A stretch of DNA of 53,198 nucleotides. Origin: a virus (taxonomy: Duplodnaviria; Caudoviricetes). Every line of letters begins with the position of its first letter. Position 1 is the stretch's first letter. The notes below the pieces were generated by a model. That model did no database searches. It saw nothing but the letters and a program-made list of their open reading frames with translations, and was not told the DNA's origin. Below are positions 8,003 to 49,381 of the stretch, in pieces. The translations under genes and the position numbers were made by a program. The stretch spans positions 1-53,198 of the IMG/VR virus record IMGVR_UViG_3300027734_000099. One strand, 5' to 3'.

Positions 8003-8210
8003 AACCAGACTCCTGTCCAAAACCGTTTTGTGCGGTTTCATTTGGGCTATTATCGTTTCCAGGTGCAGTTCCTCCACCCCAAAACCCACCGTAGTAGATC
8101 TGGAACCAAGGAATTCCACCAACTGCGTAGCCACCGCCCAAGCGCCCCACTGTCTTGTGGTGCTTGTGCTTCTTAACCTTGAACTGTTTTTTATCTATGG
8201 CCATACCCAA
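7935..8210 (-). CDS. Gly-rich hypothetical protein
   Basis: 91-aa ORF, basic N-terminus, Gly-rich tail. Confidence 0.55.
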   Translation of the reverse strand: MGMAIDKKQFKVKKHKHHKTVGRLGGGYAVGGIPWFQIYYGGFWGGGTAPGNDNSPNETAQNGFGQESGYGGDVGGSTGATASDGGGSGAM

Positions 8211-8244
8211 ATAATCCCACTATTGTGTGGCACATAAATGCCAA

Positions 8245-8266
8245 AGGCCGGGATTTCTCCCGGCCT
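8245..8266 (-). terminator. Hairpin terminator
   Basis: AGGCCGGGA / TCCCGGCCT stem with GAAA loop on minus strand after 8293-9252 gene. Confidence 0.65.
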
Positions 8267-8292
8267 CTGCGCTATTAAATTGTTTGTGTTGA

Positions 8293-10562: not shown

Positions 10563-11267
10563 TTAGGAGTAGTCCTTTTTAGTCCAATGCTTTAATTTAT
10601 ATGCTCCTCCACCCGAATCTATAGCATCTTCTCGCAAACTGTTCTGATTCCCCCTTAAATCATTATTTACTTTAATTTCCCACTCATGACGCTTGATAGG
10701 TATCACCTGTAGATATGGAGTTCCCTTAGGAATGATCCCCTCAAATCCTGTACTTACGCAAAATAAAGCTGATCCTGGTGCTGCAAAGGCATCTGTGTCT
10801 ACTAACCCTGAAAAAGTTATAAATGGTAGATCCGGCCTGTTAAGAGGATGAGTAATTAGAGCGCTATACCCTTCCGGAGTTTTAATTCCCCAAGGAACAT
10901 TCCAAGCAAAAGACCATTCCGAATAACCATTTATACGTTGTAACCCAAGTGAAACAGATGATGACCGCACCTCAAGAGGCCACAACTCTGAATTCCAACT
11001 TAAATCTGGTACAAAACCAGTTTCAACCTCTACCTGCATAATTTTAATATCACACCAAGTAGTCAACATATACCCAGCTGTCATGGCGTCTAGATACGGA
11101 ATGCATGCTTTTGCTGTAAGAGTGTCTCGTGTTTTATTTAAATTATCGCTATGCCTAGGTATTTCCTTGTACCAATCTGGAATTGTCCTTGAAGAGGGTA
11201 CTGGAGATGGTATTACCCGATTAATTGTGTTTGAAGGTGAATAGGTTTCAACAGTTAGTTTGTCCAT
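10563..11267 (-). CDS. dUTPase-fold/DUF6065-like protein (paralog of 49374-50084)
   Basis: IP.WYK, K.C.P.LDA..AGY, TP.GYS.L.THP.NR.DLPF...SG.VD.D, GTP..Q.IPIKR shared with 49374-50084. Confidence 0.7.
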   Translation of the reverse strand: MDKLTVETYSPSNTINRVIPSPVPSSRTIPDWYKEIPRHSDNLNKTRDTLTAKACIPYLDAMTAGYMLTTWCDIKIMQVEVETGFVPDLSWNSELWPLEVRSSSVSLGLQRINGYSEWSFAWNVPWGIKTPEGYSALITHPLNRPDLPFITFSGLVDTDAFAAPGSALFCVSTGFEGIIPKGTPYLQVIPIKRHEWEIKVNNDLRGNQNSLREDAIDSGGGAYKLKHWTKKDYS

Positions 11268-11342
11268 TCCCCCACCCTATCGCACTTAGGCCACTGTATG
11301 AGCATAGATACTCCCAACAGTTCGTCTCACCTGGCCAAACTT

Positions 11343-11414
11343 GGACAAAACGGACATTTAACCCATACCCCCCCAAAACGGACAAAGCGGACAAAAGCAA
11401 ACCAAACGGACAAA
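11343..11414 (+). repeat. Five GGACA(AA) direct repeats at strand switch
   Basis: Copies at 11343, 11352, 11380, 11389, 11408. Confidence 0.75.
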
Positions 11415-11469
11415 TAAACTAATAGTGAAGGCGGTCAGACCGAAGGTTAGAAAGTAGGTAATTCTGTGT

Positions 11470-11508
11470 GCGCCGTATAGTGCGGTTCGATTCCCACTAT
11501 ACGGGCGC
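11470..11508 (+). ncRNA. tRNA T-arm-like hairpin (GGUUCGAUUCC loop on about 15-bp stem)
   Basis: GCGCCGTATAGTG-C-GG-TTCGATT-CC-CACTATACGGGCGC. Confidence 0.5.
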
Positions 11509-11547
11509 GGGCTTACATCTAGTAAGTCTTAGCAGAAGGGGACTATT

Positions 11548-12069
11548 ATGTCCGCACGCGAAAATCTATCTGCCCTGTTGGCTACTCGTGGCAAGGGTGG
11601 CTCATTAGAGTCCATCTCCCAAGCGGGTAAGCACTTCAGCGCCGATAAGACGCTCACACCTTCCGACTTTATCGTAGATAAGTTGGAAGCCTCTAAGGCA
11701 ATCACACTACTCGGCGGGTTCGCCGTATCTACCTATGGCTTCGAGCCAGCGGTGGCTTACTCAATGCGTAATGTGTTTGCTAAGGAGTATGGCAAGGTGC
11801 TAGGTCTATTCGACCTTACACAGCCAGACTTCGTTGCTTCTATCAAGGAGATAGAGCAAGAGATTGCCACAGCAGAAGCCGATAAGGCTTCTCTTGACAT
11901 CTCATTAGGCGTAGATGCGGAACGCTACATCAAGAACGCTACTTCTCAGATTGAGAAGGTTATTGATGGTTCTGTATCGCCTAAAGTTCGCCACGACCTT
12001 CTCACTCTCCAAGCAATCATTGAGAAGAAGTTGGCTTACGCACCACTCAAAGTCGCACAGAACGCCTAG
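11548..12069 (+). CDS. Hypothetical early protein (first gene of plus-strand block)
   Basis: 173 aa, AGAAGGGG SD. Confidence 0.85.
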   Translation: MSARENLSALLATRGKGGSLESISQAGKHFSADKTLTPSDFIVDKLEASKAITLLGGFAVSTYGFEPAVAYSMRNVFAKEYGKVLGLFDLTQPDFVASIKEIEQEIATAEADKASLDISLGVDAERYIKNATSQIEKVIDGSVSPKVRHDLLTLQAIIEKKLAYAPLKVAQNA

Positions 12070-12078
12070 TTCGTAGTT

Positions 12079-12483
12079 AGTGGGGGGAGCAATCCCCCCA
12101 CTCTCTATCTATGTCCATAGTCATCTATGGGCGTAGATGGGGTTATGCCGACCAATCGGCTCACTCTGCTATGTAAGTAGCAGACCCCCGCACACGATTA
12201 CCTACTTTTCGTGTCTTCTGTCTATCGAGAAGCCCTAGCCGTCCCCTTCACAATGTCGGCTAGGGCTTTCTCATTCTCACATAGTGATACAACTCACATC
12301 ATAGATAGTTTGGCTACTGTCAAATTGACAACTATGAGCATTGAGAGACACACCAGGTCTGGGGCTATGTCTAGGGTCTGTTATCAGGTAGGTTGTGGAA
12401 GGCACATCTGTTCATCTATGAGGAGGGTCTTCATAGTATTTGAGTGCTAAGCAGGTGTGCCTCTCACTCTCTATCTGAGAGTG
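12079..12483 (+). ncRNA. Hairpin-dense non-coding region (candidate structured RNA A)
   Basis: Stems 12079-12102 (GCAA loop), 12103-12142 (18 bp, 4 G-U), 12227-12272, 12400-12462 (13 bp), 12465-12483. Confidence 0.5.
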
Positions 12484-12498
12484 TATGAAAGGATAGCT

Positions 12499-12699
12499 AT
12501 GAACTGTATCTATTGCGGACAGCCTGTGCATCCAGAGAGATGGGAAGCAGGCTATGAGTATTGTATGGCTCCTGAGTGTGCTCATCAGTTACGAGAGCGT
12601 GCTGAGCAATACAGGCTCATTTTAGTTCCTAAGCAGGGCTTTACCTATGTAGAGGCTGACTCTCCTCATCTCCTATCTGGTAAGTCATCAGGTAGATAA
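12499..12699 (+). CDS. Small Zn-finger protein
   Basis: CIYC...ERW.AGYEYC...C; GAAAGGA SD. Confidence 0.75.
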   Translation: MNCIYCGQPVHPERWEAGYEYCMAPECAHQLRERAEQYRLILVPKQGFTYVEADSPHLLSGKSSGR

Positions 12700-12717
12700 T
12701 TTCCCCGCGCTTTTTTA

Positions 12718-12826
12718 GTGTTGCTGATGGAAGATACATAGGACGACAGACTGAGGCTCGTAAGGTGTTAATTTGCCTGTGTAGCGTGTAGGTCGACTTT
12801 CCCTATGTATCTCTCATTGGTAATAC
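12718..12826 (+). ncRNA. Long bulged hairpin (candidate structured RNA B)
   Basis: GTGTTGCTGATG/CATTGGTAATAC (12 bp, 3 G-U) plus AGATACATAGG/CCTATGTATCT (11 bp). Confidence 0.5.
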
Positions 12827-12849
12827 CTTTTACCAATAGAAGGAGCATT

Positions 12850-12990
12850 ATGTTCACACTATCGATCAAGATAGGTTTTACCCGTAAGAAGAAAGAGATG
12901 ACAGATGTTGTATGTCATCACTGTGGACAGCCTTATCGTGTTCACATAAATAACATCAGAGCGGTCAATTACTGCACTAGTTGTAAGTAA
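12850..12990 (+). CDS. Small Zn-ribbon protein
   Basis: CHHC...CTSC; AGAAGGAG SD. Confidence 0.65.
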   Translation: MFTLSIKIGFTRKKKEMTDVVCHHCGQPYRVHINNIRAVNYCTSCK

Positions 12991-13014
12991 TACACCAAAT
13001 CTTCCCCGCGAAGT

Positions 13015-13300
13015 TTGAGATGGACAGAGGGCACACTGAATAGGCTGTCGATTGCACGGAGAACTGAATATCTATTGGGGTGTAACTATGAAGATAGATG
13101 GAAAGTGAAGAAGCGAAACAGAACGGACTTGGGTGCCTGAGGAATCCTGTGGCTGATAGTTACCTATCCAAGTAAGAGTGGAGTATGTAGGAAAAGACGC
13201 GACTGTGCTTACATACAGAATGAAACGACGCAAGAGGGACTGTGGCTGTGAGTCTCACGCAATTCCTTCAGTAATTCAGTGTGCCGTCTATCTATCTCAA
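13015..13300 (+). ncRNA. Candidate 286-nt multi-stem RNA with kissing-loop pseudoknot (RNA C)
   Basis: 27-position closing stem 13015-13041/13274-13300; internal stems; GTAACTAT/ATAGTTAC loop-loop pairing; no ORF. Confidence 0.6.
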
Positions 13301-13328
13301 CCGAGGTAGATGACAGAAGGGAGACGCA

Positions 13329-13919
13329 GTGTCAGGTGTAGCAAATGCAATGACACTAGAGCGTTTCTATGAGTACAACCCCCCAATTGACCCAGATAAG
13401 TCATATTGGTGGGCAGTGGATACTATTCAAGTAGGCGATTATGTAAGATCAAATAAAGATAAATACAACACCCACACATGGCGTGTCGTTGCTATCGGCG
13501 CCAATAGTTGGAAGAATATCTCAGTACTAATGGAAATGCCTTCAAACTATACAAAGACATCAGGTATCTATGACAAGTATTGGTCTTATGGTCTCAATGA
13601 GAACAATGAGCCGGTGTGTCGTAGAACTATGTATTTGAACAACATCAAAAAAATCAACCCAGAAAAAGGAGAAGATATGTGCCGCTGTCGTTCGTCATAT
13701 TGTTTTTGCGATAGTGCATTGACATACGAAGTTAATGAGCATTCATTGACTGTTGATGTATCTAAAGGCAAAACAATCCGGCTTACTCTTGAAGAGTGTG
13801 CTGAACTAGCATCATTCTTAGGAACTGCCAAAGGCAAGATAAAAGAAGCCAAGCTTGCTGCTCTCAAAGAGCAACAAGATGAGTTGGCTAAGCAACTAGC
13901 AGAAGTGGAGTCAATGTAA
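13329..13919 (+). CDS. Hypothetical protein with probable in-frame internal start at 13677
   Basis: AGAAGGGAG SD; second AAAGGAG SD before ATG 13677; coiled-coil C-terminus. Confidence 0.75.
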   Translation: MSGVANAMTLERFYEYNPPIDPDKSYWWAVDTIQVGDYVRSNKDKYNTHTWRVVAIGANSWKNISVLMEMPSNYTKTSGIYDKYWSYGLNENNEPVCRRTMYLNNIKKINPEKGEDMCRCRSSYCFCDSALTYEVNEHSLTVDVSKGKTIRLTLEECAELASFLGTAKGKIKEAKLAALKEQQDELAKQLAEVESM

Positions 13920-14005
13920 TGTATATTGAGTTCGAGCCACAGACTATCGTGATTATCTGTATCTCATTAGTCTTCATCGCAGCCATCAGAGCATGGCGTA
14001 AGTAA
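13919..14005 (+). CDS. 28-aa single-TM peptide (not in ORF track)
   Basis: MYIEFEPQTIVIICISLVFIAAIRAWRK; TAATG coupling. Confidence 0.55.
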   Translation: MYIEFEPQTIVIICISLVFIAAIRAWRK

Positions 14006-14006
14006 T

Positions 14007-14126
14007 TCCCAGAGAAAGGGATACACACTTCGGTGTGGTTGGTCTGACGAGACCTGAGGTAAAACACGTCCCGCGCATCGGGGTATATCTGCGTCTCACC
14101 TGAGCATGTGAAGGCTAAACTGCTCA
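14007..14126 (+). ncRNA. Structured intergenic RNA ending in H-type pseudoknot
   Basis: CACAC-TTCG-GTGTG, GGTCT/AGACC, pseudoknot TCAC/GTGA with TGAGCA/TGCTCA. Confidence 0.45.
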
Positions 14127-14145
14127 CCTAACAGAAGGGAAAGCA

Positions 14146-14520
14146 ATGACTATAACCATAGTCGAATGTGCACGCTGTCAGGAGCCACAAGTATTCAAGC
14201 CCATGTCTATGGACTCTGATATACCTGTTGCTTTAGATATATCTTTAGATGGTGGCTACGCAATGTTCGTAGACAACATCTATGCTGAGGGTGGTAAGAA
14301 CCCTCTGCAATTTACGTTGTGCCACAAGTGTGCCCACGAGTTCACAAAGTTCATGTGTATACCTGAGACCACAGTGTTTAACTGGCACTCAAATACAGAG
14401 GAGGAATACTGCAGTGGCTACACCAAAGAATGGTTTAACGAACAGTACGATAAACAAATCGCTTACGTCAAAGAAAACTGGCACAAGCAATTCCCCAACA
14501 ACCCATTCCCCAACTCTTGA
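14146..14520 (+). CDS. Zn-binding hypothetical protein (possible +1 extension to 14629)
   Basis: CARC...LCHKC; AGAAGGG SD. Confidence 0.75.
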   Translation: MTITIVECARCQEPQVFKPMSMDSDIPVALDISLDGGYAMFVDNIYAEGGKNPLQFTLCHKCAHEFTKFMCIPETTVFNWHSNTEEEYCSGYTKEWFNEQYDKQIAYVKENWHKQFPNNPFPNS

Positions 14521-14654
14521 TGAGTTAAAGAAAGACCTGTTCATTGCCATTGAAGTTCTCAATGGTTATACAGAGCACGAAGCATTGCTAAATTGGCAGT
14601 GCACACAAGGGACATGCCAATGTCCATAACAACTACCCCCGAAAGGAGCCTTCA

Positions 14655-14912
14655 ATGGCAGGGAAAAAATCAGGCGGTTCAAGAAATGATAGCCGACCTA
14701 ATGGCAAAGCATGGAAAAAGAATCCTGGCCCAGATGGAGTCAAATCCAAGTTTGAGTCTAGACCAGGTCGTATTAACGGTCGCAGTGCAAGCAACCATGA
14801 GAAACGTGAAGCCTGGAAAGCAGCAGGCGGTCGTGTTGACCACCCAACTATCCCACACTGGCGCACTGGCAAAGTAAGAAAGGAGACAGTAAGTGTTTCC
14901 AATGACGCCTAG
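14655..14912 (+). CDS. Small basic protein
   Basis: GAAAGGAG SD; Lys/Arg/Gly-rich 85 aa. Confidence 0.7.
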   Translation: MAGKKSGGSRNDSRPNGKAWKKNPGPDGVKSKFESRPGRINGRSASNHEKREAWKAAGGRVDHPTIPHWRTGKVRKETVSVSNDA

Positions 14913-15090
14913 CCAATCATGGCTATTCCTGTTCCTATTGTTTTACTCAGTAGGAATTACAGCTCTTGCATACCTATGGCGTAGTAAGTATTATGACTTA
15001 CAGTCATACCGTATCTTTGAGCGTAAGCAACAAGGATACAAACGCACACAGTTAGACGAAATATACTCACAGTCATTTCTTAAAGACTAG
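14893..15090 (+). CDS. Small membrane protein
   Basis: One TM helix; AGAAAGGAG SD before GTG. Confidence 0.7.
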   Translation: MFPMTPSQSWLFLFLLFYSVGITALAYLWRSKYYDLQSYRIFERKQQGYKRTQLDEIYSQSFLKD

Positions 15091-15206
15091 TCTTACACGG
15101 AAGGCGGGAGTTCTATTGAACGAAAACCGGCCCTCGTAAGACCGCACCATCATGCGGTATACAAATGTGATGGAGCTTGTATAGATGTCACAGTCTATGC
15201 AAGCAC

Positions 15207-15433
15207 GTTGGGCAGGGGCATAATGAGTGGCCAAGAACTGAGGGGGAGCATTAGTAAGAAGTGCCTTCGTTTTGTAAGTGGCTAGGTATCCCATGGGGAA
15301 ACTACTCCTGGCTGTGCAACCACTCAAAACATCAAACACTAAATGCGTTTGCTGATGACAGCACACCTCGGGGTAACCCACGTGTGCCGAGGCTAGAGTC
15401 AGGATACCGTGGGAGGTGGCACCCCTGTCCAAC
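15207..15433 (+). ncRNA. Candidate 227-nt pseudoknotted RNA (RNA D)
   Basis: Closing stem GTTGGGCAGGGG/CCCCTGTCCAAC; nested TCCCATGG/CCGTGGGA and TCCTGGCT/AGTCAGGA; crossing TGAGTGG/CCACTCA. Confidence 0.55.
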
Positions 15434-15467
15434 ACAAACAAACCGCACAACAGCAGAAGGGATCAAC

Positions 15468-15758
15468 ATGTTCACAAAACGTAAGTTGATAAAGCGTATA
15501 GAGCGCATGATGGTTGAGCAAGAGCTCGAACTTCATGACCTCGATTCGCAACACAGCAGGGCATACCACAGTGGCATCATAGATGGTCTTGGTATGGCAC
15601 TCTATGAAGTGTCCCCTGTAGTAGCACGTCGTAATCCAATCAGTATCGTATGGTTTGATGAGGACTATGACGATAATCGTATGACAGAGCGTTATCGTGA
15701 AGAAGCATTTGATGCTATAAACGATAGTTCTATCTTCGAAACTGTTGAAGCCAAGTAA
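15468..15758 (+). CDS. Hypothetical protein
   Basis: AGAAGGG SD before ATG 15468. Confidence 0.75.
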   Translation: MFTKRKLIKRIERMMVEQELELHDLDSQHSRAYHSGIIDGLGMALYEVSPVVARRNPISIVWFDEDYDDNRMTERYREEAFDAINDSSIFETVEAK

Positions 15759-15760
15759 CA

Positions 15761-16471
15761 ATGGCAATCAGCAAATGGTCTGTTACAGACTATGACACAG
15801 CCAGCGTATATCTAAGTGAAGGTCGCAAGAAATGGACTCGCCCTTTGTATATGCGTGGGTTGCGCTTAACTAAACGCAGCAATGGAGACATTGCAATAAA
15901 TGACAATTGGTCTAACATGACCCCTGTTATTTATCATAAAGACGGAACTGTAACTATAGAAGCCCCAACAGTTGCTACCCACTTTGGTGGGACTTGGCAA
16001 ACGCTTAGGTCTCAAACTGTTCGTTACAACATCCGCCAGTTCTCTGGTATTAAAGACATCAAACAACAGAACTATCAATGTTATTTGACCTTTCAAGACG
16101 CAGAGGTAACCCCACCCAAAATACAAGGTTGTAGAACTTGTAAACAAACCGGAAGAATTGATAGCTGGTGTAATTCAAGTTACTGCAGCAACGAATGGCC
16201 TTGTGCAGAACACCCTGAAGCAGTGCAAGGAACCAGCGTATCAAGTTGGCATAAAGTTCCATGTGAACACGGCGTGTTGAATGGACACGAAGTTAAACGA
16301 GGACAACAATGCTACTCATGCAACGGGACACGCAAGCGTGACTACGGCAGCAGGTTAGAAACATTTAAGTGGGACGGTTCACCGCTCAAACTTAAAGATG
16401 GCAACATAGTTAAACGACCACCAACCGAACTAGAGAAAAGGATCGCAGCATATGTCCAACTACAAAGTTGA
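15761..16471 (+). CDS. Hypothetical protein with DnaJ-type CxxCxGxG Zn motifs
   Basis: CRTCKQTG, CYSCNGTR and extra Cys/His. Confidence 0.75.
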   Translation: MAISKWSVTDYDTASVYLSEGRKKWTRPLYMRGLRLTKRSNGDIAINDNWSNMTPVIYHKDGTVTIEAPTVATHFGGTWQTLRSQTVRYNIRQFSGIKDIKQQNYQCYLTFQDAEVTPPKIQGCRTCKQTGRIDSWCNSSYCSNEWPCAEHPEAVQGTSVSSWHKVPCEHGVLNGHEVKRGQQCYSCNGTRKRDYGSRLETFKWDGSPLKLKDGNIVKRPPTELEKRIAAYVQLQS

Positions 16472-16919
16472 ATATACCGGTGAGTATATGCCTTCAGCAG
16501 GAGATGCGTCTAGTCCGCTACAAGCGGCTACGCAAATCATTCAAGGCTATATTCCATCTAACATAGTAGAGAGTTCATCTCTACCAGAGTTCAGAGATGC
16601 AACGCTTGGCTACATCTTGCGAGATGTAACTGACCACGACATAGTGCTACGCGCATTGTCAACCGCATTGCGTAGCACCGAAGATACACAAAAGGTTCTT
16701 TGCTACTCTGAATACCTAACAACAATTGCATTCTCTTGGGAGCACAAGCGCCTAGCAGTAGATGCAATGATGCGTAATAGACCAGAGATGACAACACCAC
16801 ACATCTGGTCTGTTGCAGTTGCGCTAAAGAAACAAATGCCTGGCCCTTTCTATCAGACACTAGTCATTGGACAAATGACTGATGCTGAAAGCAAGTGGCG
16901 TTCAATGACAGGTATGTAA
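16452..16919 (+). CDS. Divergent DUF4192-like protein
   Basis: FRDA...AFSW...GP helical pattern resembling 21429-21905. Confidence 0.45.
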   Translation: MSNYKVEYTGEYMPSAGDASSPLQAATQIIQGYIPSNIVESSSLPEFRDATLGYILRDVTDHDIVLRALSTALRSTEDTQKVLCYSEYLTTIAFSWEHKRLAVDAMMRNRPEMTTPHIWSVAVALKKQMPGPFYQTLVIGQMTDAESKWRSMTGM

Positions 16920-17156
16920 CCAACACAAACACGGCCGCATACAGTCAACCGCAGAAGGCACACAACAAGAAATACTCGTTTAAATACTAAACCAAACCCA
17001 AGCCGGAAAGCAATAACCATGGCCTGCGCCGTTATGGTCGATCGTGACACAAAGTCCAACTGACCGTTCTGCCAGGTAGCAAAATCATGTGAGCGAGCCC
17101 GTAGTTGCTAATGAGTTCAGTCCCTTTATTACCTTCGTATGTAAGTTGTGTGCAAC

Positions 17157-17191
17157 GCCGTAGGTCACTCACTAGGTGGGTGGCCTACGGC
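17157..17191 (+). other. 16-bp hairpin at end of a 300-nt spacer
   Basis: GCCGTAGGTCACTCAC-TAG-GTGGGTGGCCTACGGC with G-U pairs on plus strand. Confidence 0.6.
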
Positions 17192-17218
17192 TTCAACCAT
17201 CAACCAAAGGAGAACAAC

Positions 17219-17470
17219 ATGTGCCAAGCGTGTGAGGATAACCACGAAGATGAAGGCAGAGATTGGCAAGATGAATTCAATCAGCTGTCAGAAGTTGAAA
17301 AGCAAGAGTTCTACGATTATGCAGTAGGACAACTAACATTTATCATTGATAAAGCCGAAAGTAACGGCGTGTTGTTTGACCTAATTACTAAATGGCCTCG
17401 TGAGAAGCAGGTAGCGTTTGAAATGGCTGCCGTTATAGAGAACCGCGTCTTAAATGACGAAGAAGACTAA
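17219..17470 (+). CDS. Acidic hypothetical protein
   Basis: AAAGGAG SD before ATG 17219. Confidence 0.75.
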   Translation: MCQACEDNHEDEGRDWQDEFNQLSEVEKQEFYDYAVGQLTFIIDKAESNGVLFDLITKWPREKQVAFEMAAVIENRVLNDEED

Positions 17471-17546
17471 GTTTCCTTAACAAATAGTTAGGGAATGTCA
17501 TAGCAATATGACAAACGATTCCATTACCAAAGAAGGGGTAAAAGCT

Positions 17547-18989
17547 ATGGATATCGCTGTATTCACGGAGTCATATGAACCAACTATGGGGGCAAATCGC
17601 CGTCAGGTTCTAATCACTCCACATGATGGAAATGTACGTATCTATTCACGTAACACAGACGGGACTAAAGGCCCTCACAATAAGTGGGAGGAAACAGACC
17701 TAGATAGTATTACTGGAGAGATATCTACAGGTGAGTCATTAACACGAACACCAGTTGCTGTGTACGTTACAGCAGCAGATGAGCGTGCAATGACTAGCAA
17801 AGGCTATTCCCCAGTCCTTGGCACCAAGGCATGTCAGGCACATACAAAAGCAACAGCTAACACTGACGCAACATCATTCGTAGATCGTATTTGCGAACTG
17901 TATGAAGCAGTAAGTAATGGTGATGATTCGCTTGAAGAATATGTAATTGACAATCGTCGTATGCCAGGCTCGCCTGTTCCAATGGGTGTTGTTCCAACAC
18001 AAACAATCCCCGCACCAACCATCACACCAGTCACAGAGACAGTTGTTCCTACAACCTCTGCACAACAAGGAGCAGTGATTAACGCAGCGCTTGCTTCAGT
18101 GCCACGCATTGAACTTGCTAAGCGTTATGTGCATAGAGATATCTGGTCCCGTCAGGACTTTGAAATCTTTGACCATGCACGTTCACAGAACATCAACGTC
18201 CTTATCTACGGCCCAACCGGCCCAGGTAAGACTACATCTGTTGAAGCATGGGCTGCTGAACGCGGCTTACGCATGGCAACAGTATCTGGTAACGCTTCAA
18301 TGGAGCCAAGCCAGATGACTGGTAAATATGTATCTGATGGCAATGGTTCATTTGCATGGATCGATGGCCCAGTTACAGACGTTGTTCGCAATGGTGGCGT
18401 CTTATTGCTCGATGAGGTTAACTTCATCAGCCCTAAGATTTACACAGTTCTATATTCATTGCTAGATGGTCGTCGTAACATTACGTTGCTAGACCACCAC
18501 GGTGAGACTATTGAGGCTAATAAAGACCTCACTATCTTTGCCACAATGAATCCAGATTACATTGGCACAACACCGCTCAACTTTGCATTCCGCAATCGCT
18601 TTGATATCCAAATCCCATGGGATTACGATGACAAAGTGGAGGCTAAGTTGGTTACATCTAAAGCCTTGCTAGTAGTTGCTAAACAACTTCGCGTTGAAGC
18701 AGGCAAAGGTCAGTATGAAACACCAATCTCAACTAACATGCTTCAGGAGTTTGTCAACTTTGTTGATGCTCTTGGTTATGAGTTTGCAGTTGAGAACTTT
18801 ATCGCTCACTTCTCTGCTGACGAAGCAGCAAGTGTGCGTCTTGTATTCCAGACACACGAGCACAATATCAAGACTGACTTTGGTATTGAGATTCCTATTG
18901 TCGTGGAAGAACAACCTGAAGGTAAATCACCTGAAGAACAACTTATGGAGTGGGCTGGACAATACGCTTCCCATAATGGCGTTATCTAA
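17547..18989 (+). CDS. MoxR/CbbQ/CobS-type AAA+ ATPase with N-terminal extension
   Basis: GPTGPGKT, LLLDEVN, ATMNP, A.RNRF. Confidence 0.9.
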   Translation: MDIAVFTESYEPTMGANRRQVLITPHDGNVRIYSRNTDGTKGPHNKWEETDLDSITGEISTGESLTRTPVAVYVTAADERAMTSKGYSPVLGTKACQAHTKATANTDATSFVDRICELYEAVSNGDDSLEEYVIDNRRMPGSPVPMGVVPTQTIPAPTITPVTETVVPTTSAQQGAVINAALASVPRIELAKRYVHRDIWSRQDFEIFDHARSQNINVLIYGPTGPGKTTSVEAWAAERGLRMATVSGNASMEPSQMTGKYVSDGNGSFAWIDGPVTDVVRNGGVLLLDEVNFISPKIYTVLYSLLDGRRNITLLDHHGETIEANKDLTIFATMNPDYIGTTPLNFAFRNRFDIQIPWDYDDKVEAKLVTSKALLVVAKQLRVEAGKGQYETPISTNMLQEFVNFVDALGYEFAVENFIAHFSADEAASVRLVFQTHEHNIKTDFGIEIPIVVEEQPEGKSPEEQLMEWAGQYASHNGVI

Positions 18990-19000
18990 GAAAGGTAACC

Positions 19001-20905
19001 ATGTATCAAGAACAGCTGGAAGATAACAGCTATTACGGAGAAGCCAGAGATGAGGATACACAAGAACGTGCTATCCGACTCAATGCTCTTTGTCGTGTCT
19101 ATGAACAGGCCGACAGAGTATTAACTGGCGACCCCGTGCTAGTGCACGTTATGCCTGATGGCCCCGCACCAGCGTGGTCTGATGGCGCAGCCATCTATAT
19201 CAATGTTAATGAAATTCAAGACATTGATTTAGAAACATTGACGCAGGTGAACGGCTTGAACTATCACGAGCTGTGTCATCACTTGTATACGCCTCGCAAA
19301 GGCACAACCTTAGTCCAATGGATTCAAGAGCAAAACTACTTCCAAGCGTTTAATATCTTGGAGGACCAACGCATCGAGACTCTATTCGTAGCAAGGTATC
19401 CATCAATATCACCATACCTAACAGCAACAGTTGCTCGTTGGCTTGGTGGTTCTGAAGACACAGGCGGTAACTACCTCTGCATTCGTGGTCGTCGTTATTT
19501 ACCTGTGGATATTAGGCAAGCATTCAGAGATGAATTTGCATTTCCTGAGCTAATTCCTAATATCATTGACATCGTAGACAAGTATCGTTTGCTGGCTTTC
19601 CCCAAAGATTATGAAACAGCAAAAGTATTAGTCGAACGACTCCACAAAGAAGTTCTAGTTCCAATGGGACTAGATGGACAATCATTCGGTGGCGGTCCTA
19701 ATGGATGTGGAGATCGTGCCCCAGTAGGTAAAGGTCGTCCTGAACCTGGCAAGGCACAAGAGAAAGATGCTGCACGTGCTTGCGGTATGGGAACTAAAGA
19801 ATCTACTTTTATTCCTAAACCTAAACAATCAGAGCCATCTAATAATGATGGCAATAGTGCAGGCAACACTCCAACACAAACAAACGACGGCTCCGGCCCA
19901 TACATACCACAAAGCACACAAGAGGCTCTAGATATTAGAGACCAACATGTGAACACACCAACATCACCAACAGCAGGAACTGGCCATGTAAAAAGCATGG
20001 GTGGTGTTCCTAACCATATCGATGACATGTTGAATGACGCTATCAATGAAGTGCTTGATCGTAAAGATGTTCAAGCCGACATTAAAGCCAAGCAACGTGT
20101 AATCGTGGGCGGTGATGGTAAACACGAAGATGTCACCAAGCGTGGCAAATTCAGCAGCACATCTGTGCCACAAGAAGCAATCATTAACTATCGTAAGTTC
20201 GCTAAAGAACTACAACGGTTGCGTGATGATTCAGAACCAGCATGGTCTAAAGAAACTCCATCTGGTCGTCTTAACGTGCAGCGTGTAATCAGAGGCTGTG
20301 AGATTGACCAAGCCTTTGATCGTTGGGAGGAAGGCGATGATGGTTGCGATATTGAAGCAGTCATCCTTGTCGATCGTTCCGGCTCAATGTCTAGTGGACA
20401 GAATGATAAGAAAGCATCTATTGCATGCTGGACTATCAAACGAGCACTAGAACACATTCAAGCACCGGTAACAGTCTATGCATTTGATGACCAAGCCGAA
20501 GTTGCTTACACCCGCACCGAACATGCTCACAAAACTGAGTATAAGTTCATCTATGGCAATGGTGGAACAGAACCGTATCCAGCATTGCTAGCCGCTGAAC
20601 AGCTTCTCATGTCTTCTCGTAAGAAGAACAAAATGCTGTTTATAGTTACTGATGGTGTGTTCAACACAAACAAAAATGACGAGCTAATTGAGCGTATCTC
20701 ACGCCGTGGGATTCTTACTGCAATGACCCTCATCATGAACGACAAAGAGTTCAAATACTATGTGGAAGATAGCAATCAACTAACCCTTGAAGGCTTAAAG
20801 CACAAGTCTGAAGTCTTTGGTCGAATCAGTAATGCCCAAGACCTGCTTCCCTTTGCACGACAGGTTGTTACATCTGCAATCCGCAAACGATCAAGAATAC
20901 GTTAG
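19001..20905 (+). CDS. vWA (MIDAS) protein with N-terminal HExxH metallopeptidase-like domain (CobT-like partner)
   Basis: HELCH, NILEDQRIE, DRSGSMS, GGT, VTDG. Confidence 0.88.
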   Translation: MYQEQLEDNSYYGEARDEDTQERAIRLNALCRVYEQADRVLTGDPVLVHVMPDGPAPAWSDGAAIYINVNEIQDIDLETLTQVNGLNYHELCHHLYTPRKGTTLVQWIQEQNYFQAFNILEDQRIETLFVARYPSISPYLTATVARWLGGSEDTGGNYLCIRGRRYLPVDIRQAFRDEFAFPELIPNIIDIVDKYRLLAFPKDYETAKVLVERLHKEVLVPMGLDGQSFGGGPNGCGDRAPVGKGRPEPGKAQEKDAARACGMGTKESTFIPKPKQSEPSNNDGNSAGNTPTQTNDGSGPYIPQSTQEALDIRDQHVNTPTSPTAGTGHVKSMGGVPNHIDDMLNDAINEVLDRKDVQADIKAKQRVIVGGDGKHEDVTKRGKFSSTSVPQEAIINYRKFAKELQRLRDDSEPAWSKETPSGRLNVQRVIRGCEIDQAFDRWEEGDDGCDIEAVILVDRSGSMSSGQNDKKASIACWTIKRALEHIQAPVTVYAFDDQAEVAYTRTEHAHKTEYKFIYGNGGTEPYPALLAAEQLLMSSRKKNKMLFIVTDGVFNTNKNDELIERISRRGILTAMTLIMNDKEFKYYVEDSNQLTLEGLKHKSEVFGRISNAQDLLPFARQVVTSAIRKRSRIR

Positions 20906-22678: not shown

Positions 22679-22778
22679 AGCCTCCGGTAGCACTCCGGAG
22701 GACTCCAACTGAAGGCGTGAACTCTGAGCTTTAAGAGTTTACGTGTATAGTCTATATCATAATAGAAGGGAAAAATAC

Positions 22779-23027
22779 ATGTTTGAAATAGGATTCGCTA
22801 GCGGAACTATTAAAGACAAACATATACGAAAACTAGTGGCTGCATTAGAAAATGCAGGGCTAGAAGTCACGGTAACCAAGGGTAAACAACACATCCGTGT
22901 CGAAAACCCCGAGACACATAAGGTAGTATTCTTCGGTGGTAACTCGCTTGGGGACTGGAGAGCCGCAAAAAACATACTGAGAGACCTAAAACAAGTAGGT
23001 TTCAATGAAGATATCAAACTAGGTTAG
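22779..23027 (+). CDS. HicA-like mRNA interferase fold protein
   Basis: L...G......KG..H.....P...DWRA.KN....LK..G; AGAAGGG SD; no adjacent HicB. Confidence 0.7.
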   Translation: MFEIGFASGTIKDKHIRKLVAALENAGLEVTVTKGKQHIRVENPETHKVVFFGGNSLGDWRAAKNILRDLKQVGFNEDIKLG

Positions 23028-23721: not shown

Positions 23722-23735
23722 GACACAAAGCAAAT

Positions 23736-23761
23736 GGCCCCTCGTCTCACGACGGGGGGCC
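23736..23761. terminator. Terminator between convergent blocks
   Basis: GGCCCCTCGTC-TCAC-GACGGGGGGCC. Confidence 0.75.
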
Positions 23762-23781
23762 AAATGTTTGTGTTGGCGTTT

Positions 23782-23913
23782 TTAGGAGTCGATTTCGTCG
23801 TCTAGAAATAGATCTTCTAGGTCTTCAATATCTTCCTCTTCCAACTCATCAATGATGTCTTCAAAGTCTTCTTCAAAGTCCTCATCAAAAAGGTCTGGAT
23901 TTAGATCTTCCAT
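23782..23913 (-). CDS. 43-aa hyper-acidic protein (not in ORF track)
   Basis: MEDLNPDLFDEDFEEDFEDIIDELEEEDIEDLEDLFLDDEIDS; GGGAGAG SD. Confidence 0.65.
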   Translation of the reverse strand: MEDLNPDLFDEDFEEDFEDIIDELEEEDIEDLEDLFLDDEIDS

Positions 23914-23955
23914 TGCAACTCTCCCAGTACTAGTAGGTATGAAAATCGTACACTA

Positions 23956-26025: not shown

Positions 26026-27540
26026 TTAATCTATGTGATCAGAGATTATTCTAGTGGTATTCTCCTCAGAAATCCCACCGTTCGGTAACTCCTTTAGGGT
26101 GTTAGCTTTATCACCAAACAAAGCTGACAGTACACCGCCCGAAGTCTGACGTTCTACGGTCAATTTGACAAACTCTTTATTTTCTTCAAGTTCTTTCAAA
26201 CTCTTAACAATCTTAAATAGTCTATCAATCTCTTGCCCAGTGTTAGGATCCGGGTACCCGCCGTTTAGTTCTTCAGCAAATCGAGCAAATGCAACACGAG
26301 CACCTTGCATCTCAATGATGGCATTTAACAAACCCTTAAGTTGGTCTTTAGTCTTTACCTCTACTGGCAAATTGAAAGCACAAGTATTCTGTGGCTTAAA
26401 TGCAGGGCAGTTAGCAGCAACAAAACATGTATCGCATTGTCGCAAACTAGTGTGGGTAGTTTCAATGATAGGAACGTCTCTTATCAGGTCTCTGCCGTCG
26501 CTATCTCTATCCAAAACTGTCTTAGTATTTACCGAAAATACTGGCAAAGTACGCGTTTCTGATGCATCTCTTGCTACTACAGCAGGGCGTTCTACTGCAG
26601 AATCTTTCCGCACCTCAACACCTCTGTTATCAGGGTCTATACCCATAGTTTCCGCAGAACCTGGACTATCTATGTCCACACTGTTATCAGATAACTTCTC
26701 ATCATTTACCACAGTTAGGTGTGGTGGCTTCTTTTTATCCAACGATTTCTCCAGCTCTAGGTATGACCAAATGGCGAGGCGAGTTACCTCATTACTATCA
26801 TCATTAAGAATCTTATCGAAGTCTAGTCCCGCTTTTTGTATAACGTTCTTATAACGGGGACGAGCCTGGTCTTTTTGTTTCTTCTGATATCTGACTAGTC
26901 TAGTGGTATCCCAGACAATAGTTTCACCTCTCATCATTGGAGATAGCCACGATAAAGTGCTTGCGGTTTCCAACGGAACCTGGCGAAGGTTGTCAGGTTT
27001 GGCACAACCTAGCCCGTGGAACTTTGTTCCAAACTGGCTTTGTAGGGCCCTGGTGCGGCCTGAGAGCGTTGTATCGCTATCTATGGTCTCTCCGAGTAGG
27101 GCAACATTCTCCCATTGTTCAGAGAGCGAGAACAGGGCAGCATGCCCCATTTCTGGTTTCCATACTGGCCAGTATTTGTCTTGAAGCTCAAATCCTAAGG
27201 TTTTTCTCTGGTCGGATATCCACTCAGATCCGAGTACTTGGGAGTCGAACTCAATTACCCCAGCAATATGATCATAGTTATTGGCAATGAAATCCTCAAA
27301 GGATGCCGCGTAATCCTGCAGCTCACGGGTGCTTAACCCAGCTGCATCTGCGTGCCGGCCGCCGCCATCTAGATAGACTTTAACGTCGCTTGGGTATTTC
27401 TCTGATAATAGATAGTTCTTGGTTTTTGGCAACCCTCGTTTAGCTAGGCCCCAGTAGCTAACGGATATGTGCTGTACACCCGCATCAATCAACAACAGTC
27501 TGTGGGAGGGGACTTCGCCACCCATAAATACTAGGTTCAT
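26026..27540 (-). CDS. Divergent TGT/DpdA-like TIM-barrel protein fused to Cys-rich domain
   Basis: YLDGGG, WPVW, FHGLG, TASTLSW resemble LDSG/PVFH/HGLG/SVDSTSW; CDTC..C..C cluster. Confidence 0.55.
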   Translation of the reverse strand: MNLVFMGGEVPSHRLLLIDAGVQHISVSYWGLAKRGLPKTKNYLLSEKYPSDVKVYLDGGGRHADAAGLSTRELQDYAASFEDFIANNYDHIAGVIEFDSQVLGSEWISDQRKTLGFELQDKYWPVWKPEMGHAALFSLSEQWENVALLGETIDSDTTLSGRTRALQSQFGTKFHGLGCAKPDNLRQVPLETASTLSWLSPMMRGETIVWDTTRLVRYQKKQKDQARPRYKNVIQKAGLDFDKILNDDSNEVTRLAIWSYLELEKSLDKKKPPHLTVVNDEKLSDNSVDIDSPGSAETMGIDPDNRGVEVRKDSAVERPAVVARDASETRTLPVFSVNTKTVLDRDSDGRDLIRDVPIIETTHTSLRQCDTCFVAANCPAFKPQNTCAFNLPVEVKTKDQLKGLLNAIIEMQGARVAFARFAEELNGGYPDPNTGQEIDRLFKIVKSLKELEENKEFVKLTVERQTSGGVLSALFGDKANTLKELPNGGISEENTTRIISDHID

Positions 27541-34476: not shown

Positions 34477-36981
34477 ATGAACATAGTTAAGAAGGAGAAA
34501 AAAATAAACCTACTGCGCCTATTCGCAGCACTAATCCTTACACTATTCCTCTTTATATTGGGACAATATTCAGCACACGCCGAAGAACCAACCGTAACTA
34601 CGGTTGTAGTCAGCCCTGCCTCCACAGATTCTTCTCCAAATCCTGTGACTTCTCCTGCTCCCGTAGTAGTTGTTGTGACAACAAGCGATACTTCGACTTC
34701 CACGGTTCAGACCACTGGATCCCCCCAACCAACCACCCAGACGCAAACCCAAACAGTATTAGTAGTTCCAACTGTAACCTCCGTTCAAGAAAAAATTGAG
34801 GTTGCAACTGTAGCACTATCTACTGCGGTAGCCGTAGCTACCCCTGAGCAACAGTCTGCTGCTGCAGCCCCTGTGGTAACAGCTCAAGCAGATATTACAA
34901 CAGCAACGACCGCGGTTGCGGTAGCCGTGACAGCAGTTGCAGCCGTAGATACTCAAACAGCAGTAGTAACGCAAGCCGTTACTAACGTAGATTCAGCTAC
35001 AGCAGTAGTGGCTACAGCAATAACCGCAATGGATTCTCAAACAGCGGTAGTAGCAACAGATACAGTTGCAGTAGCAACAGCCACAACTGCTTTACAAGTA
35101 GCAACTACGCTACCCGCTAACGCTATTACCTATACAACACCTGGTTATGTAGCTCCAGTTGCCCCAGCCGTTCCTACTGTTACAACAACAGTTCTTCCAG
35201 CAATGGGGGATGACGCTGCAAAAATAACAACCCCGTTTGATATTAAAATGGGAACAACAGTATTTGAAGGACAGGGAACAAACAGTCAGATATATGTAAG
35301 CCCTAAAGGAATTATTTCATTTGGTGGAAAAGATTACACATATTGGGACTGGCCTAACATGAAGCCAAACGGTATTTATGTATTTCAATCCGACTTTATG
35401 AGCAGTGGTACAGGTGCAAAAATTACTGTTACTACAACAGAGACCACTTTAAGCGTGGATTGGGATGTTCATAAATGGGGAGATAGTCAAGGTCCTCTTA
35501 CTAATATGAACTGGGATATGACAGTTAACCCAACAACAGGTGAGTGGACTGGCATAGGAACCATGTCTGGAAGCACTGTTGTAAGCGGTGGGCCTAGAAG
35601 CGGTGTTAGACAAAACGGGGTTTTAACTCAACTAACCGCAGTAACTAATACTCAAAAAGAAGCCATAGTTGCAACCGCTACAACTACTTTAGCAACTGCT
35701 CAAACAACTCTTACTACTGATACTGCCGTTCTTGCAACGCTTACAGAAGCGAAAACAACAGCAGTGACAGCACTTGCAACAGCTCAGTCCACACTAACAG
35801 CAGAAACTCAAACATTAACTACCCTCCAATCAACGGCTAATACAGCAGTTACTACAGCAAATCAATTAGCAGATACTGCAACTGCTAGCGTAGCAGTAGC
35901 GGTTGCTGCTCTTCAAGTTCCAACACCTATAGTTCAACCAGTGGTCCCTGTTCCCACCCCGGCTCCAGAACCTCAACCCGTTCCTCAACCTGAGCCAACC
36001 CCTGCGCCTCAACCTGAACCGGTTCCGCAACCTGAGCCAACACCCGTACCTCAGCCAGAGCCGCAACCACAGCCTGTGCCTGTGCCAGAACCAACCCCAC
36101 AACCTGAGCCTGTGCCTCAGCCTGAACCAACACCCGATCCTGCACCTGTTCCAGAAGTACAACCTGAGCCCGTGCCTTCTCCAGAGCCAGCTCCAATGCC
36201 TGAACCTGTGCCTGAGCCACCTATTGACCCACCCACAGAAGAGCCATTACCACCCACAGAACCCCAACCAGAACCGGCAGAGCCCGAAGCGCCACCCGTA
36301 GCACCCGAGGAGCCTCCTGTGGCACCTGAGCCACCTGTGGAACCAGAACCAGCACCAGAGACACCAGAGCCAGAGCCACAAAATCCGTCACCTGAACCAT
36401 CACAACCTCCTGTAGTAGAACCTGCTCCAGAGCCTACCACACCAGCTGAAGAGGTTGCCTCAGCTATTGAAGACGCTAAAGCAGACGGTAAAGTAACTGA
36501 GGCCGAGAAAGAAGTAATTGCAGAAGCTTTGGTTGCCTCACTTGCTCCTGGAGAATCCCTTACTAAAGAACAAATTCAAGAAGCAGGAATTGAGTACAAG
36601 GACCTGCCACCAGAGACTCCTGTCGAGGTTAGGCAGGATGAAAATGGAAATGAAGTTATCATTACAGCAGACGTTGCTGCAGCCCTCGTATTATTAGAGA
36701 ACCCTGCGGAGTTAATTGGCGCAATATTTGATGACCCTGGTCAAGCTCTCCAAGCACTTGGAAGTATCGGTGCGGACATGAGCCCACAAGAACGAGAAGA
36801 AGCAGAAAAGATGGTTGTTGCTGCCGTCATTGCAGGTAATGCTGCAATTAACGCAGTAGGAGCCGCAGCATCAGCTGCTGGTGGAGCTACACGAAGTGGT
36901 GGCGGTACTGGTGGCGGTGGAAGTTCCGGTGGCGGAGGAGCCTCCGGTGAATCTAAAGGCGTTAGGAGACGTAAGCCGTGA
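34477..36981 (+). CDS. Large secreted/surface protein: signal peptide, Thr/Ala/Val stalk, NIDO-like domain, PEP-repeat linker
   Basis: AHA|EE signal cleavage; DD...TPF...[12 protein letters not shown]; long PQPEP repeats; hydrophobic stretch then RRRKP at C-terminus. Confidence 0.75.
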
Positions 36982-37148
36982 GAGTTATTAGAGACATGAT
37001 TGACCAACTATGGACATTGTTAGGCATGTTCATTGCCTGGGTAGTTCTTGATGGATCTGCAAAGACCGTTGTTGGTTATGCAATTGTCGGAACATTAATT
37101 GCTTGGGCCGTTACCTACCCACTACGTAACCCAAAGGATGAGGAATAA
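36978..37148 (+). CDS. 56-aa 2-TM protein (not in ORF track)
   Basis: [26 protein letters not shown]...; GTGA overlap, AGGAG SD. Confidence 0.65.
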
Positions 37149-48916: not shown

Positions 48917-49381
48917 TTAAGTTGTTTCTTGAGAGTGAATCTTAGTCCACTTTTCCATCAATTCAATTGATAGATCAGGATGTCGATTCCAGTCAATCCT
49001 AGGGGCTTCAAGAAGTCCCCGAGACTGAAAACTCTCGATAGTTGCTTCGACAATTGCTTTGCTGTACATCCGCCATCCGGGCTTCTTTACACCATTAACA
49101 ATCATTGACTTTAAGCGATAGGGTGCACGCGGTATATAACCTTTTCGTTCCCAAAGCCTCAAAGTAACTAACGGTCTGCCTAACGCAAGAGCCATAGCTC
49201 CTGCGCTAAACAATTCTAGCACCTTTCCGTTTGGTAATGCTTTGACTTGTGGGTCAGCATTCCAAGCGGTTGGTGTAGAAACTGTACGTGGTTTTGCATT
49301 TGGATCTGGTTCACGACGTTTGCGTTTAGAGCCAGGGTAGTAATCATCCAGGCTCTTAAACAACTTGTCAACTTCATCCAT
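48917..49381 (-). CDS. MerR-like HTH DNA-binding protein
   Basis: A.ALGR..VTLRLWERKGYIP...R.Y. Confidence 0.75.
   Translation of the reverse strand: MDEVDKLFKSLDDYYPGSKRKRREPDPNAKPRTVSTPTAWNADPQVKALPNGKVLELFSAGAMALALGRPLVTLRLWERKGYIPRAPYRLKSMIVNGVKKPGWRMYSKAIVEATIESFQSRGLLEAPRIDWNRHPDLSIELMEKWTKIHSQETT

Follow-up and report, generated by a model that had tools for sequence, protein, structure and literature searches.

In the early region of phage T7, the RNase III sites lie between cistrons of a transcript made by the host polymerase and are single bulged hairpins of about 60–80 nucleotides (nt) that form one loose family, and the early-mRNA sites of phage SP82 are comparable. In ribosomal RNA (rRNA) operons, a long flanking helix lets a double-strand nuclease excise the core, and transfer RNAs (tRNAs) punctuate polycistronic transcripts. 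The phage-associated non-coding RNAs (ncRNAs) GOLLD and ROOL, which are Rfam families found also in lake metagenomes, have a length of 500–800 nt and complex folds. Structured RNAs longer than about 200 nt with strong covariation are rare, and the earlier cases proved to be ribozymes, riboswitches or cores of RNA–protein machines. Here, we describe a series of structured RNA modules, named R1 to R7, that are located between small genes in the virus record IMGVR_UViG_3300027734_000099 (Duplodnaviria; Caudoviricetes) from IMG/VR. The whole record of 53,198 bp was analysed and is called the window below; its GC content is about 45% and its completeness was estimated as about 54% using CheckV.

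A screen of intergenic regions in IMG/VR gave 8495 candidate structured RNAs of DNA viruses with a length of 29–151 nt (mean 67 nt), and the available part of that report lists tRNA-like structures, terminators and upstream cis elements (Fremin, Bhatt, Kyrpides 2023, PMC10690425). As far as that part goes, the source of the sequences and the kind of evidence, namely conserved intergenic regions with covariation, were the same as here, and all of the candidates are smaller than R4, R6 and R7; pieces of R1–R7 may be among them. In gut phages, the UG27 arrays consist of tandem units of about 150 nt that share one fold and stand beside a reverse transcriptase (RT) gene and two accessory genes, according to the accessible part of the preprint (bioRxiv 10.64898/2026.09.22.753630).

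The region 11420–17218 of the window contains at least seven conserved RNA modules in a fixed series; they are non-coding, differ from one another and lie on the plus strand between small co-directional genes (Table 1). As in T7 and SP82, structured spacers lie between co-directional cistrons and duplexes of about 20 bp are located close upstream of the ribosome-binding site; such intercistronic duplexes were found in R4 (23 pairs) and R3 (about 23 pairs plus inner helices). Unlike the T7 and SP82 sites, R4, R6 and R7 are multi-junction folds of 200–280 nt with invariant unpaired runs, each module is a family of its own, and the host of the phage is probably an actinobacterium. In R4, a large folded RNA is enclosed by a long helix, much as rRNA is by its processing stems, and R1 might label a cut site as tRNAs do, but the enclosed RNAs are neither rRNA nor tRNA. 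With the UG27 arrays, insofar as the accessible part of the preprint describes them, the locus shares a phage-encoded set of structured ncRNAs with modular gain and loss; unlike those arrays, it has no RT, its folds are distinct and its modules are interleaved with genes. Tandem units with a shared fold were not found, the covariance model of R4 matching R4 homologues only. A large complex fold is common to GOLLD, ROOL and the three large modules, but R4, R6 and R7 are smaller (200–280 nt) and have no Rfam match. In size and intricacy, R4, R6 and R7 match ribozymes or riboswitches.

Table 1. Positions of the non-coding spacers and RNA modules in the window.
Feature	Position	Strand	Description
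Non-coding spacers (sp1 to sp7)	11420–11547, 12070–12498, 12700–12849, 12991–13328, 14007–14145, 15091–15467, 16920–17218	+	Starts supported by Shine–Dalgarno (SD) sequences
R1	11440–11547	+	5′ leader of the first gene (173 amino acids (aa), 11548–12069)
R2a	12080–12143	+	GC-rich hairpin 12080–12101, then hairpin of 13–15 bp 12103–12143 with conserved G–U pairs
R2b–R2f	12146–12498	+	Chain of conserved hairpin modules
R3	12716–12830	+	Long hairpin with bulges, about 23 bp and additional inner helices
R4	13022–13302	+	280-nt multi-helix RNA upstream of the 196-aa gene
R5	14034–14132	+	100-nt element of near-invariant sequence with three short helices
R6up	15091–15172	+	Two conserved hairpins 5′ of R6
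R6	15173–15446	+	270-nt multi-helix RNA with closing helix
R7	16960–17191	+	Conserved core 16960–17155 and terminal hairpin 17157–17191

The borders of the spacers were set from start codons preceded by an SD sequence, as read in the sequence, and the coordinates given in the first-pass annotation, which had been made without database searches, were found to be correct within a few bases. The spacers total 1860 of the 5799 nt (about 32%) of the region 11420–17218. Outside this region the genome is packed with genes, as had been stated at first: a crude greedy cover by open reading frames (ORFs) reached 93%, and this procedure over-calls ORFs within spacers, so that the non-coding share is underestimated. 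No ORF was conserved across 14 homologues of R4 and 14 of R6, in which the longest stop-free run switches strand and frame. A minus-strand ORF of 125 aa (15073–15450) is open in the window and in one relative (L006) only, and the indels in the alignments of the spacer regions (A5, A8) are not multiples of three. Because TAA, TAG and TGA each terminate confident genes (nine genes), there is no recoding, and the use of all three stops together with the lack of a kept frame rules out overlooked genes. The view that the spacers hold no credible ORF was thus confirmed.

Relatives were gathered with the 173-aa protein, which gave two close contigs, and with the CobS-like ATPase, which gave 36 more, mostly from genomes of about 100 kb; the resulting set of 38 related loci includes duplicates of one another. 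The 236-aa protein of the block gave no match as a query for related loci, and no match to the region 11200–17600 was found by BLASTN in 50,697 GenBank phage records. In the 38 loci, BLASTN revealed sp1 in 5, sp2 in 20, sp3 in 5, sp4 in 15, sp5 in 24, sp6 in 15 and sp7 in 11. The spacers are conserved equally to or more than the adjoining genes: sp2 is about 95% identical to its counterpart in one relative (L002) and 86% in another (L003), versus 72% for the adjoining gene in the latter at the DNA level. With a 27-nt motif taken from the 5′ part of R5, 47 further contigs were recovered from metagenomes, and profile searches detected R4 in 48 of 86 sources and R6 in 36 of 86. A scan of bacterial contigs for homologues was uninformative about the presence of the modules in bacteria: the pattern (17 fixed bases with a variable gap) was too weak and gave at least 119 stretches of genome contigs, which are chance matches. 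When the R4 and R6 profiles were run on these stretches using nhmmer, the pattern alone was matched, with a best value of 12.2 bits (E 0.025) among the matches listed.

In the window, the genes to the left of 11.3 kb are on the minus strand (e.g., terminase, 1128–2723), and the plus-strand gene block extends from 11.5 to 23.9 kb. The remainder is again on the minus strand and encodes ribonucleotide reductase, a DpdA/queuine tRNA-ribosyltransferase-like protein, RecA, DNA polymerase I and helicase. The closest cultured relatives by DNA polymerase I (PolA) are Streptomyces phages of about 113–116 kb (38% identity over the full length), and one window ORF contains DUF4192. Because of these two features an actinobacterial host is plausible, in agreement with the actinophage relationship proposed at first pass, and the lineage, one of uncultured freshwater phages with genomes of about 100 kb, probably consists of actinophages. 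The isolation of phages of 'Ca. Nanopelagicales' has been reported (PMC10202952).

The folding energies of five spacers were better than those of dinucleotide shuffles, namely sp1 (z −2.97, 0 of 200 shuffles as good), sp2 (z −9.30, 0 of 100), sp3 (z −3.20, 0 of 200), sp4 (z −2.51, 0 of 100) and sp6 (z −3.31, 0 of 100). The same five spacers folded better on the plus strand by 9–37 kcal/mol in single-sequence folding; in sp5 the two strands were equal and in sp7 the minus strand was better. In the pairs supported by the alignments, G–U cells are far above A–C cells in every module, and therefore the plus strand is the folding strand. The first-pass annotation had claimed that all seven spacers fold extensively and that their G–U pairs work only on the plus strand. 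By energy, the former claim held for sp1–4 and sp6 and failed for sp5 and sp7, which are retained because of conservation and covariation in relatives; the latter was borne out by the alignments and not by the single-sequence folding of sp5 and sp7. Selection at the RNA level, which it had deduced, is in line with the conserved secondary structure on the transcribed strand, and compensatory changes were found in homologues of R1, R2a, R3, R4, R6 and R7. The modules end 10–35 nt upstream of the next SD sequence, and long stems or hairpins close at this distance in R3, R4, R6 and R7, as had been noticed for three of the spacers.

Inside the 23-pair closing helix of R4 (approximately 13023–13049 with 13270–13296) lie six or more other helices and unpaired stretches that do not vary. 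A small covarying hairpin comes next, and then the SD sequence of the 196-aa gene. In an alignment of 14 sequences (A7), RNAalifold predicted 53 pairs, 36 of them compensatory; 95.9% of the cells were paired, versus 33–45% when the partners were slid, and all of 500 shuffles fell short of the observed value on each of the five measures used. In an enlarged set of 32 distinct sequences, 64 pairs were predicted and 53 were compensatory. The number of G–U cells was 228 versus 24 for A–C. A covariance model of R4 found a divergent member that had not been used for training (L016, 4239–4517) with 34.1 bits over the full model length, in which the closing helix is kept and rebuilt from other bases. 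Other modules gave at most 16 bits (E at least 0.029) with this model.

The closing helix of R6 comprises about 9–12 pairs. Relatives differ in whether they have one of its hairpins, the 3′ half probably forms a pseudoknot, and the RNA is followed by an unpaired tract rich in CA and by the SD sequence of the 96-aa gene. RNAalifold predicted 43 pairs in alignment A8, of which 21 were compensatory, and 94.7% of the cells were paired, versus 37–52% in slid controls. On four of the five measures none of 500 shuffles reached the observed value, and on the measure of further pair types 205 of 500 did. The enlarged R6 set comprises 25 distinct sequences. For R1, R2, R3, R6up and R7, the counts were likewise made on the RNAalifold structure with the 3′ partners slid as a control. 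R6up has 21 pairs in 9 distinct sequences (98.4% paired, 6 compensatory). The terminal hairpin of R7 is GC-rich, has 15–16 bp and ends about 15 nt upstream of the SD sequence of the 83-aa gene; its stem sequence is wholly different between relatives. In 11 distinct sequences (alignment A9), R7 has 40–49 pairs, 94% of the cells being paired versus 26–42% in slid controls, with 27–30 compensatory pairs versus 3–9, and 38 G–U cells versus 7 A–C. The structures of R1, R3, R6 and R7 are clearly supported.

R5 is extremely conserved in sequence and shows little covariation: 37 distinct sequences contain 19 pairs with 99.1% of the cells paired, 3 compensatory pairs, and 36 G–U cells versus no A–C. 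It ends 10 nt upstream of the SD sequence of the 124-aa gene. A candidate pseudoknot was seen by eye, in which the loop UGAGC of a CAC...GUG hairpin could pair with a downstream GCUCA. A short form of R5 without the 3′ part occurs in two relatives (L036, 4354–4423; L176, 1468–1537); the deletion lies between two copies of CUGC..UCACCU, a word that the full-length form has twice.

R1 is a three-way junction, the outer stem of which (11462–11466 with 11533–11537) abuts the SD sequence and encloses a long hairpin (11469–11509) followed by a second hairpin (11510–11528). The latter has a different sequence in L002 and L003 with the pairing retained (alignment A1). The core of the long hairpin (11473–11504) is a 12-bp minihelix like an acceptor/T-arm, with the 7-nt T-loop UUCGAUU. 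The consensus of tRNA T-loops is UUCRANY, and R1 shows the features of a tRNA-like minihelix, i.e., a coaxial stem of 7 + 5 bp and a 7-nt UUCRANY loop closed by G–C. The 12 pairs are uninterrupted in four relatives (L002, L003, L025, L007), and the window has an extra bulged C at 11482. In five distinct sequences the loops are UUCGAUU, UUCGACU and UUCAACU, and the stem pairs change in a compensatory manner. R1 has no D arm, anticodon arm or 3′ CCA, and its helix runs 4 bp past the acceptor-like end. ARAGORN found no gene for a tRNA or transfer-messenger RNA in the window, and R1 has no match to the tRNA clan of Rfam even at E up to 10. The main arm of R1 equals the acceptor/T-arm half of a tRNA; the other two arms are missing, and R1 is not a tRNA. 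In 6 distinct sequences it has 33 pairs (94.9% paired versus 34–51% slid, 15 compensatory; 31 G–U cells versus 1 A–C).

The GC-rich hairpin of R2a stands directly 3′ of the stop codon of the 173-aa gene, and 18 distinct sequences of R2a (alignment A6) contain 22 pairs with 97% of the cells paired, 6 compensatory pairs, and 79 G–U cells versus no A–C. The 15-bp hairpin R2c (12227–12272) is almost invariant (16 distinct sequences, 99.6% paired, 2 of 15 pairs compensatory). R2f (12400–12485), with the pattern GGAAG-stem...stem-UCUCAC, is a paralogue of R3, so the modules, which had been described as mutually distinct, are so in general with the exception of this pair; in 4 sequences, 100% of its cells are paired and 3 pairs are compensatory. 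R3 ends about 14 nt upstream of the SD sequence of the 46-aa gene and has 37 pairs in 8 distinct sequences (96.2% paired versus 34–49% slid, 12 compensatory; 54 G–U cells versus 4 A–C). In two relatives (L007, L008), a module of the R3 type is located upstream of a 66-aa gene, at the place of R2f in the window.

The search of the whole window against Rfam 15 (4227 models) gave no match at the gathering score, which agrees with the earlier impression that the elements belong to no known family. At E up to 10, the region 11000–17700 gave only mir-9201 (17.3 versus the required 95.5 bits) and sR55 (15 versus 35), both at a chance level of E about 9, and four divergent related loci gave only chance rows and two tRNAs elsewhere. 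These tRNA genes (52.9 and 51.4 bits) lie upstream of the block of one distant relative (L039, 839–1003, minus strand). Several words similar to known RNAs were rejected. The RNase P-like ACAGAAC in R4 is present in the window only (relatives carry AGUACGG), the hammerhead-like CUGACGA in R5 is not kept (relatives have CAGACAU), and the cobalamin-riboswitch-like word in R6 has no Rfam support. No description of these elements was found in the literature searched. We regard the modules as new RNA families whose general kind is known.

The order R1 to R7 is constant among relatives, with one copy of each module per genome region, while the intervening ORFs are swapped or lost. R4 is followed by a 196-aa gene in the window, a 28-aa gene in L007 and L008, and a 96-aa gene in L021–L024 and L027. 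Two relatives (L012, L013) have R4 to R7 and either R3 or R2a, but of the 15 window proteins used as queries they retain only 4; in both of them R5 is followed directly by R6. R7 is always located between the 155-aa and 83-aa genes, and R6 is mostly located before the 96-aa gene; a consistent downstream gene, as in gene-specific leaders, was thus observed for R7 and mostly for R6, and not for R4 and R5.

All genes and modules of the block are on the plus strand. The region contains five sigma-70-like sites (shuffles give 11.7), one of which is on the plus strand, inside a gene; no such plus-strand promoter was found in the spacers. Three plus-strand terminator-like sites were found, all inside genes and none within the spacers. 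No sigma-70 region 2 was detected in five complete relatives. A search for a T7-type RNA polymerase was negative, was run without a positive control and is not counted as absence. Repeated motifs were considered as phage promoters and rejected: the 21-mer at 12461–12481 and the 3′ motif of R5 each occur once in the window. The word UUCCCCGCG stands at module borders, at 12701 and 13002, and was rejected as a promoter as well, with 3 copies in the window at up to one mismatch, a number reached by 91 of 100 shuffles. Words like UCUAUCUAU occur 31 times in the window versus 11.9 expected. Among contigs assembled from RNA libraries, one covers 11440–12046 (R1 and the first gene) and another lies inside R4 (13043–13193). 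Three contigs, each from a different study, end at 12046, 12052 and 12063, before the GC-rich hairpin at 12080, which is not taken as a hint of termination.

A single transcription unit is plausible because all genes are on the plus strand, no promoter was found in the spacers and no phage sigma factor was found in the five relatives. It is quite possible, if somewhat short of probable, that the modules belong to one polycistronic transcript made by the host, which nucleases of the host would cut, perhaps freeing the large cores as RNAs; the first-pass annotation had proposed an early transcript cut in a similar way, for example by RNase III, to give decoys, ribozymes or anti-defence RNAs. The host RNA polymerase would read the block as one long transcript from near 11430–11440, on which the modules would work post-transcriptionally. 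Host nucleases would enter or stop at the long helices that close modules and at the hairpins that end them (R3, R4, R7, R2a, R1), with RNase III-type cuts in duplexes of at least 20 bp, as are present in R3 and R4, and with hairpins blocking exonucleases, e.g., those of 15–16 bp in R7 and R2c. Such cuts would divide the transcript into separately stable and separately translated pieces and could also free the cores R4, R6 and R7 (about 200–280 nt) as RNAs in their own right. The minihelix of R1 may mark or protect the 5′ end of the first message or serve as a handle for a tRNA-processing enzyme.

Several observations weigh against processing of this kind. No RNase III was found in the five complete relatives, so host nucleases would be required, and the closing helix of R6, just 9–12 pairs, is short for a nuclease duplex of the T7 type. 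The energies of sp5 (z −1.31, 20 of 200 shuffles as good) and sp7 (z −1.59, 12 of 200) are no better than those of dinucleotide shuffles, and the pairing counts are biased against the slid controls, as the structure was itself predicted from the same alignment. Four metatranscriptome runs gave 24 contigs on the region with a depth of about 2–8, which may include DNA; their cover, which is absent from R2 beyond 12063, R3 and R6 and next to none on R5 (0.4, one run), is too thin to show ends, and the gaps in it do not count as evidence. Single-stranded DNA (ssDNA) could in principle give the same strand asymmetry. Finally, the folds of R4, R6 and R7 and the near-invariance of R5 exceed the needs of processing, for which a hairpin of 60–80 nt suffices. 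Because of this complexity and invariance, an additional function of R4, R5, R6 and R7, such as ligand binding, protein binding or catalysis, is suggested.

The modules might instead be gene-specific cis-regulators, each of them controlling the ORF downstream as a thermosensor, a riboswitch or a translational operator that binds protein, which we consider rather unlikely. Each module stops 10–35 nt before a strong SD sequence, that of R1 being abutted by the outer stem, and R7 and mostly R6 keep their downstream genes as expected from such leaders; the near-invariance of R5 in 37 distinct sequences, with a possible pseudoknot beside the SD sequence, is found in ligand- or protein-binding RNAs, and R4 and R6 would suit aptamers in their size and their invariant loops. 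Gene-specific leaders are nevertheless disfavoured because the modules persist while the neighbouring ORFs change: R4 precedes at least three different genes, R5 stands before R6 in L012 and L013, and R3 shifts relative to the 66-aa gene. Moreover, the modules are not followed by any terminator-like site on the plus strand, they match no known class of riboswitch, and seven different sensors in one operon of 6 kb would be unprecedented. The independence of the complex conserved folds from the flanking genes would also fit separate trans-acting ncRNA genes with non-canonical promoters of their own, encoding defence decoys, sponges for RNA-binding proteins or ribozymes. The mimicry of a tRNA acceptor/T-arm by R1 is compatible with this explanation, and the border motif UUCCCCGCG and the UCUAUCUAU-like words could be unusual promoters or processing signals, but the spacers have no promoter or terminator consensus, the five complete relatives have no phage sigma factor and UUCCCCGCG is no commoner than chance; on this evidence, independent genes seem doubtful. 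Similarly doubtful is a bolder form of the single-transcript reading, in which the unrelated folds R4, R6, R7 and R5 would be excised from one early transcript as a toolkit acting in trans on the host. At least one of them would be a new ribozyme, a ligand- or protein-binding class or a decoy for a defence directed at RNA or tRNA, R1 would be a tRNA mimic, and the RNAs would be kept more faithfully than the intervening proteins.

Elements acting at the DNA level, i.e., ssDNA folds or protein sites for a replication origin, single-strand initiation, packaging or injection, are very improbable. It is true that the block begins at a strand switch carrying five ACGGACA repeats in phase, that the turning point of the cumulative GC skew is near 11–12 kb, and that DNA hairpins tolerate G–T wobbles. 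However, seven different multi-helix folds on the coding strand, each located precisely between a stop codon and the SD sequence that follows, with many G–U and few A–C cells and invariant loops, resemble no known DNA signal, and double-stranded protein sites would not give compensatory pairing. Templates of an RT (a retron or a UG27-like array) or remnants of mobile RNAs (group I/II introns, or elements like miniature inverted-repeat transposable elements) are an even more remote explanation and are largely refuted. Phage arrays of structured ncRNAs whose units come and go have been described, at least in the accessible part of the preprint (bioRxiv 10.64898/2026.09.22.753630). The closing helices of the modules look like terminal inverted repeats, and the modules shift relative to genes. 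Against this, RVT_1 (PF00078) is absent from the window and from all five complete relatives, while control genomes were matched; there is no match to an intron family; and the modules differ in fold and size instead of repeating one unit of about 150 nt, and occur as single copies in constant order.

Whichever function they have, three large and four smaller RNAs within about 6 kb, which occupy about one third of the sequence and outlast the protein genes, are a compact and testable source of RNA families. The block is also a possible model of early expression in phages of abundant freshwater bacteria that apparently lack RNase III and a sigma factor of their own, and perhaps a polymerase. 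Should the cores be set free and target the host, they would represent a new kind of RNA-based takeover or counter-defence by phages; if the modules serve only processing and stability, the principle of the T7 early region would be extended to larger and more diverse RNA structures.

Some other features of the window were observed. Between the minus-strand gene of a 234-aa protein and R1, a divergent control region (11289–11417) contains five copies of (A)ACGGACA(A) in phase as well as an inverted repeat, GGCCAC...CCTGGCC; these elements are conserved in L002 and L003 and partly in L025, and at the strand switch they probably serve as iterons or operator sites. The 234-aa protein (10563–11267, minus strand, PHROG 7084) has a paralogue with 36% identity at 49380–50033 on the same strand. 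The 236-aa protein (15761–16471, plus strand) is the most widely kept ORF of the block and is present in most related loci; cysteine repeats of the CxxCxGxG type, similar to the DnaJ zinc finger, were seen in it by eye, and no Pfam or PHROG match was found. Small zinc-ribbon proteins are among those encoded between the modules. Two ORF-free gaps fold much better than shuffles (40 used) on both strands, namely 23722–23955 (z −5.6/−3.9) and 8135–8292 (z −5.0/−4.6); the former, where the plus- and minus-strand gene blocks converge, may be a two-way terminator.

The pair of genes at 17508–20905 (plus strand), an AAA_5 ATPase and a VWA protein, is similar to the cobaltochelatase subunits CobS/CobT, and the queuine tRNA-ribosyltransferase/DpdA-like gene is located at 26026–27540 on the minus strand (PHROG 887, E 2.9e-57). 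These similarities suggest a 7-deazaguanine DNA modification and a MoxR/VWA-type system in the phage. A small ORF (22743–23027, plus strand) has a weak Pfam match to a HicA-like toxin (E 6.5e-05, 23.4 bits, cut-off 27). One kilobase (36001–37000) has a higher GC content (0.54 versus about 0.44 around it) and lies inside an ORF of 834 aa (34477–36981) with no Pfam or PHROG match.

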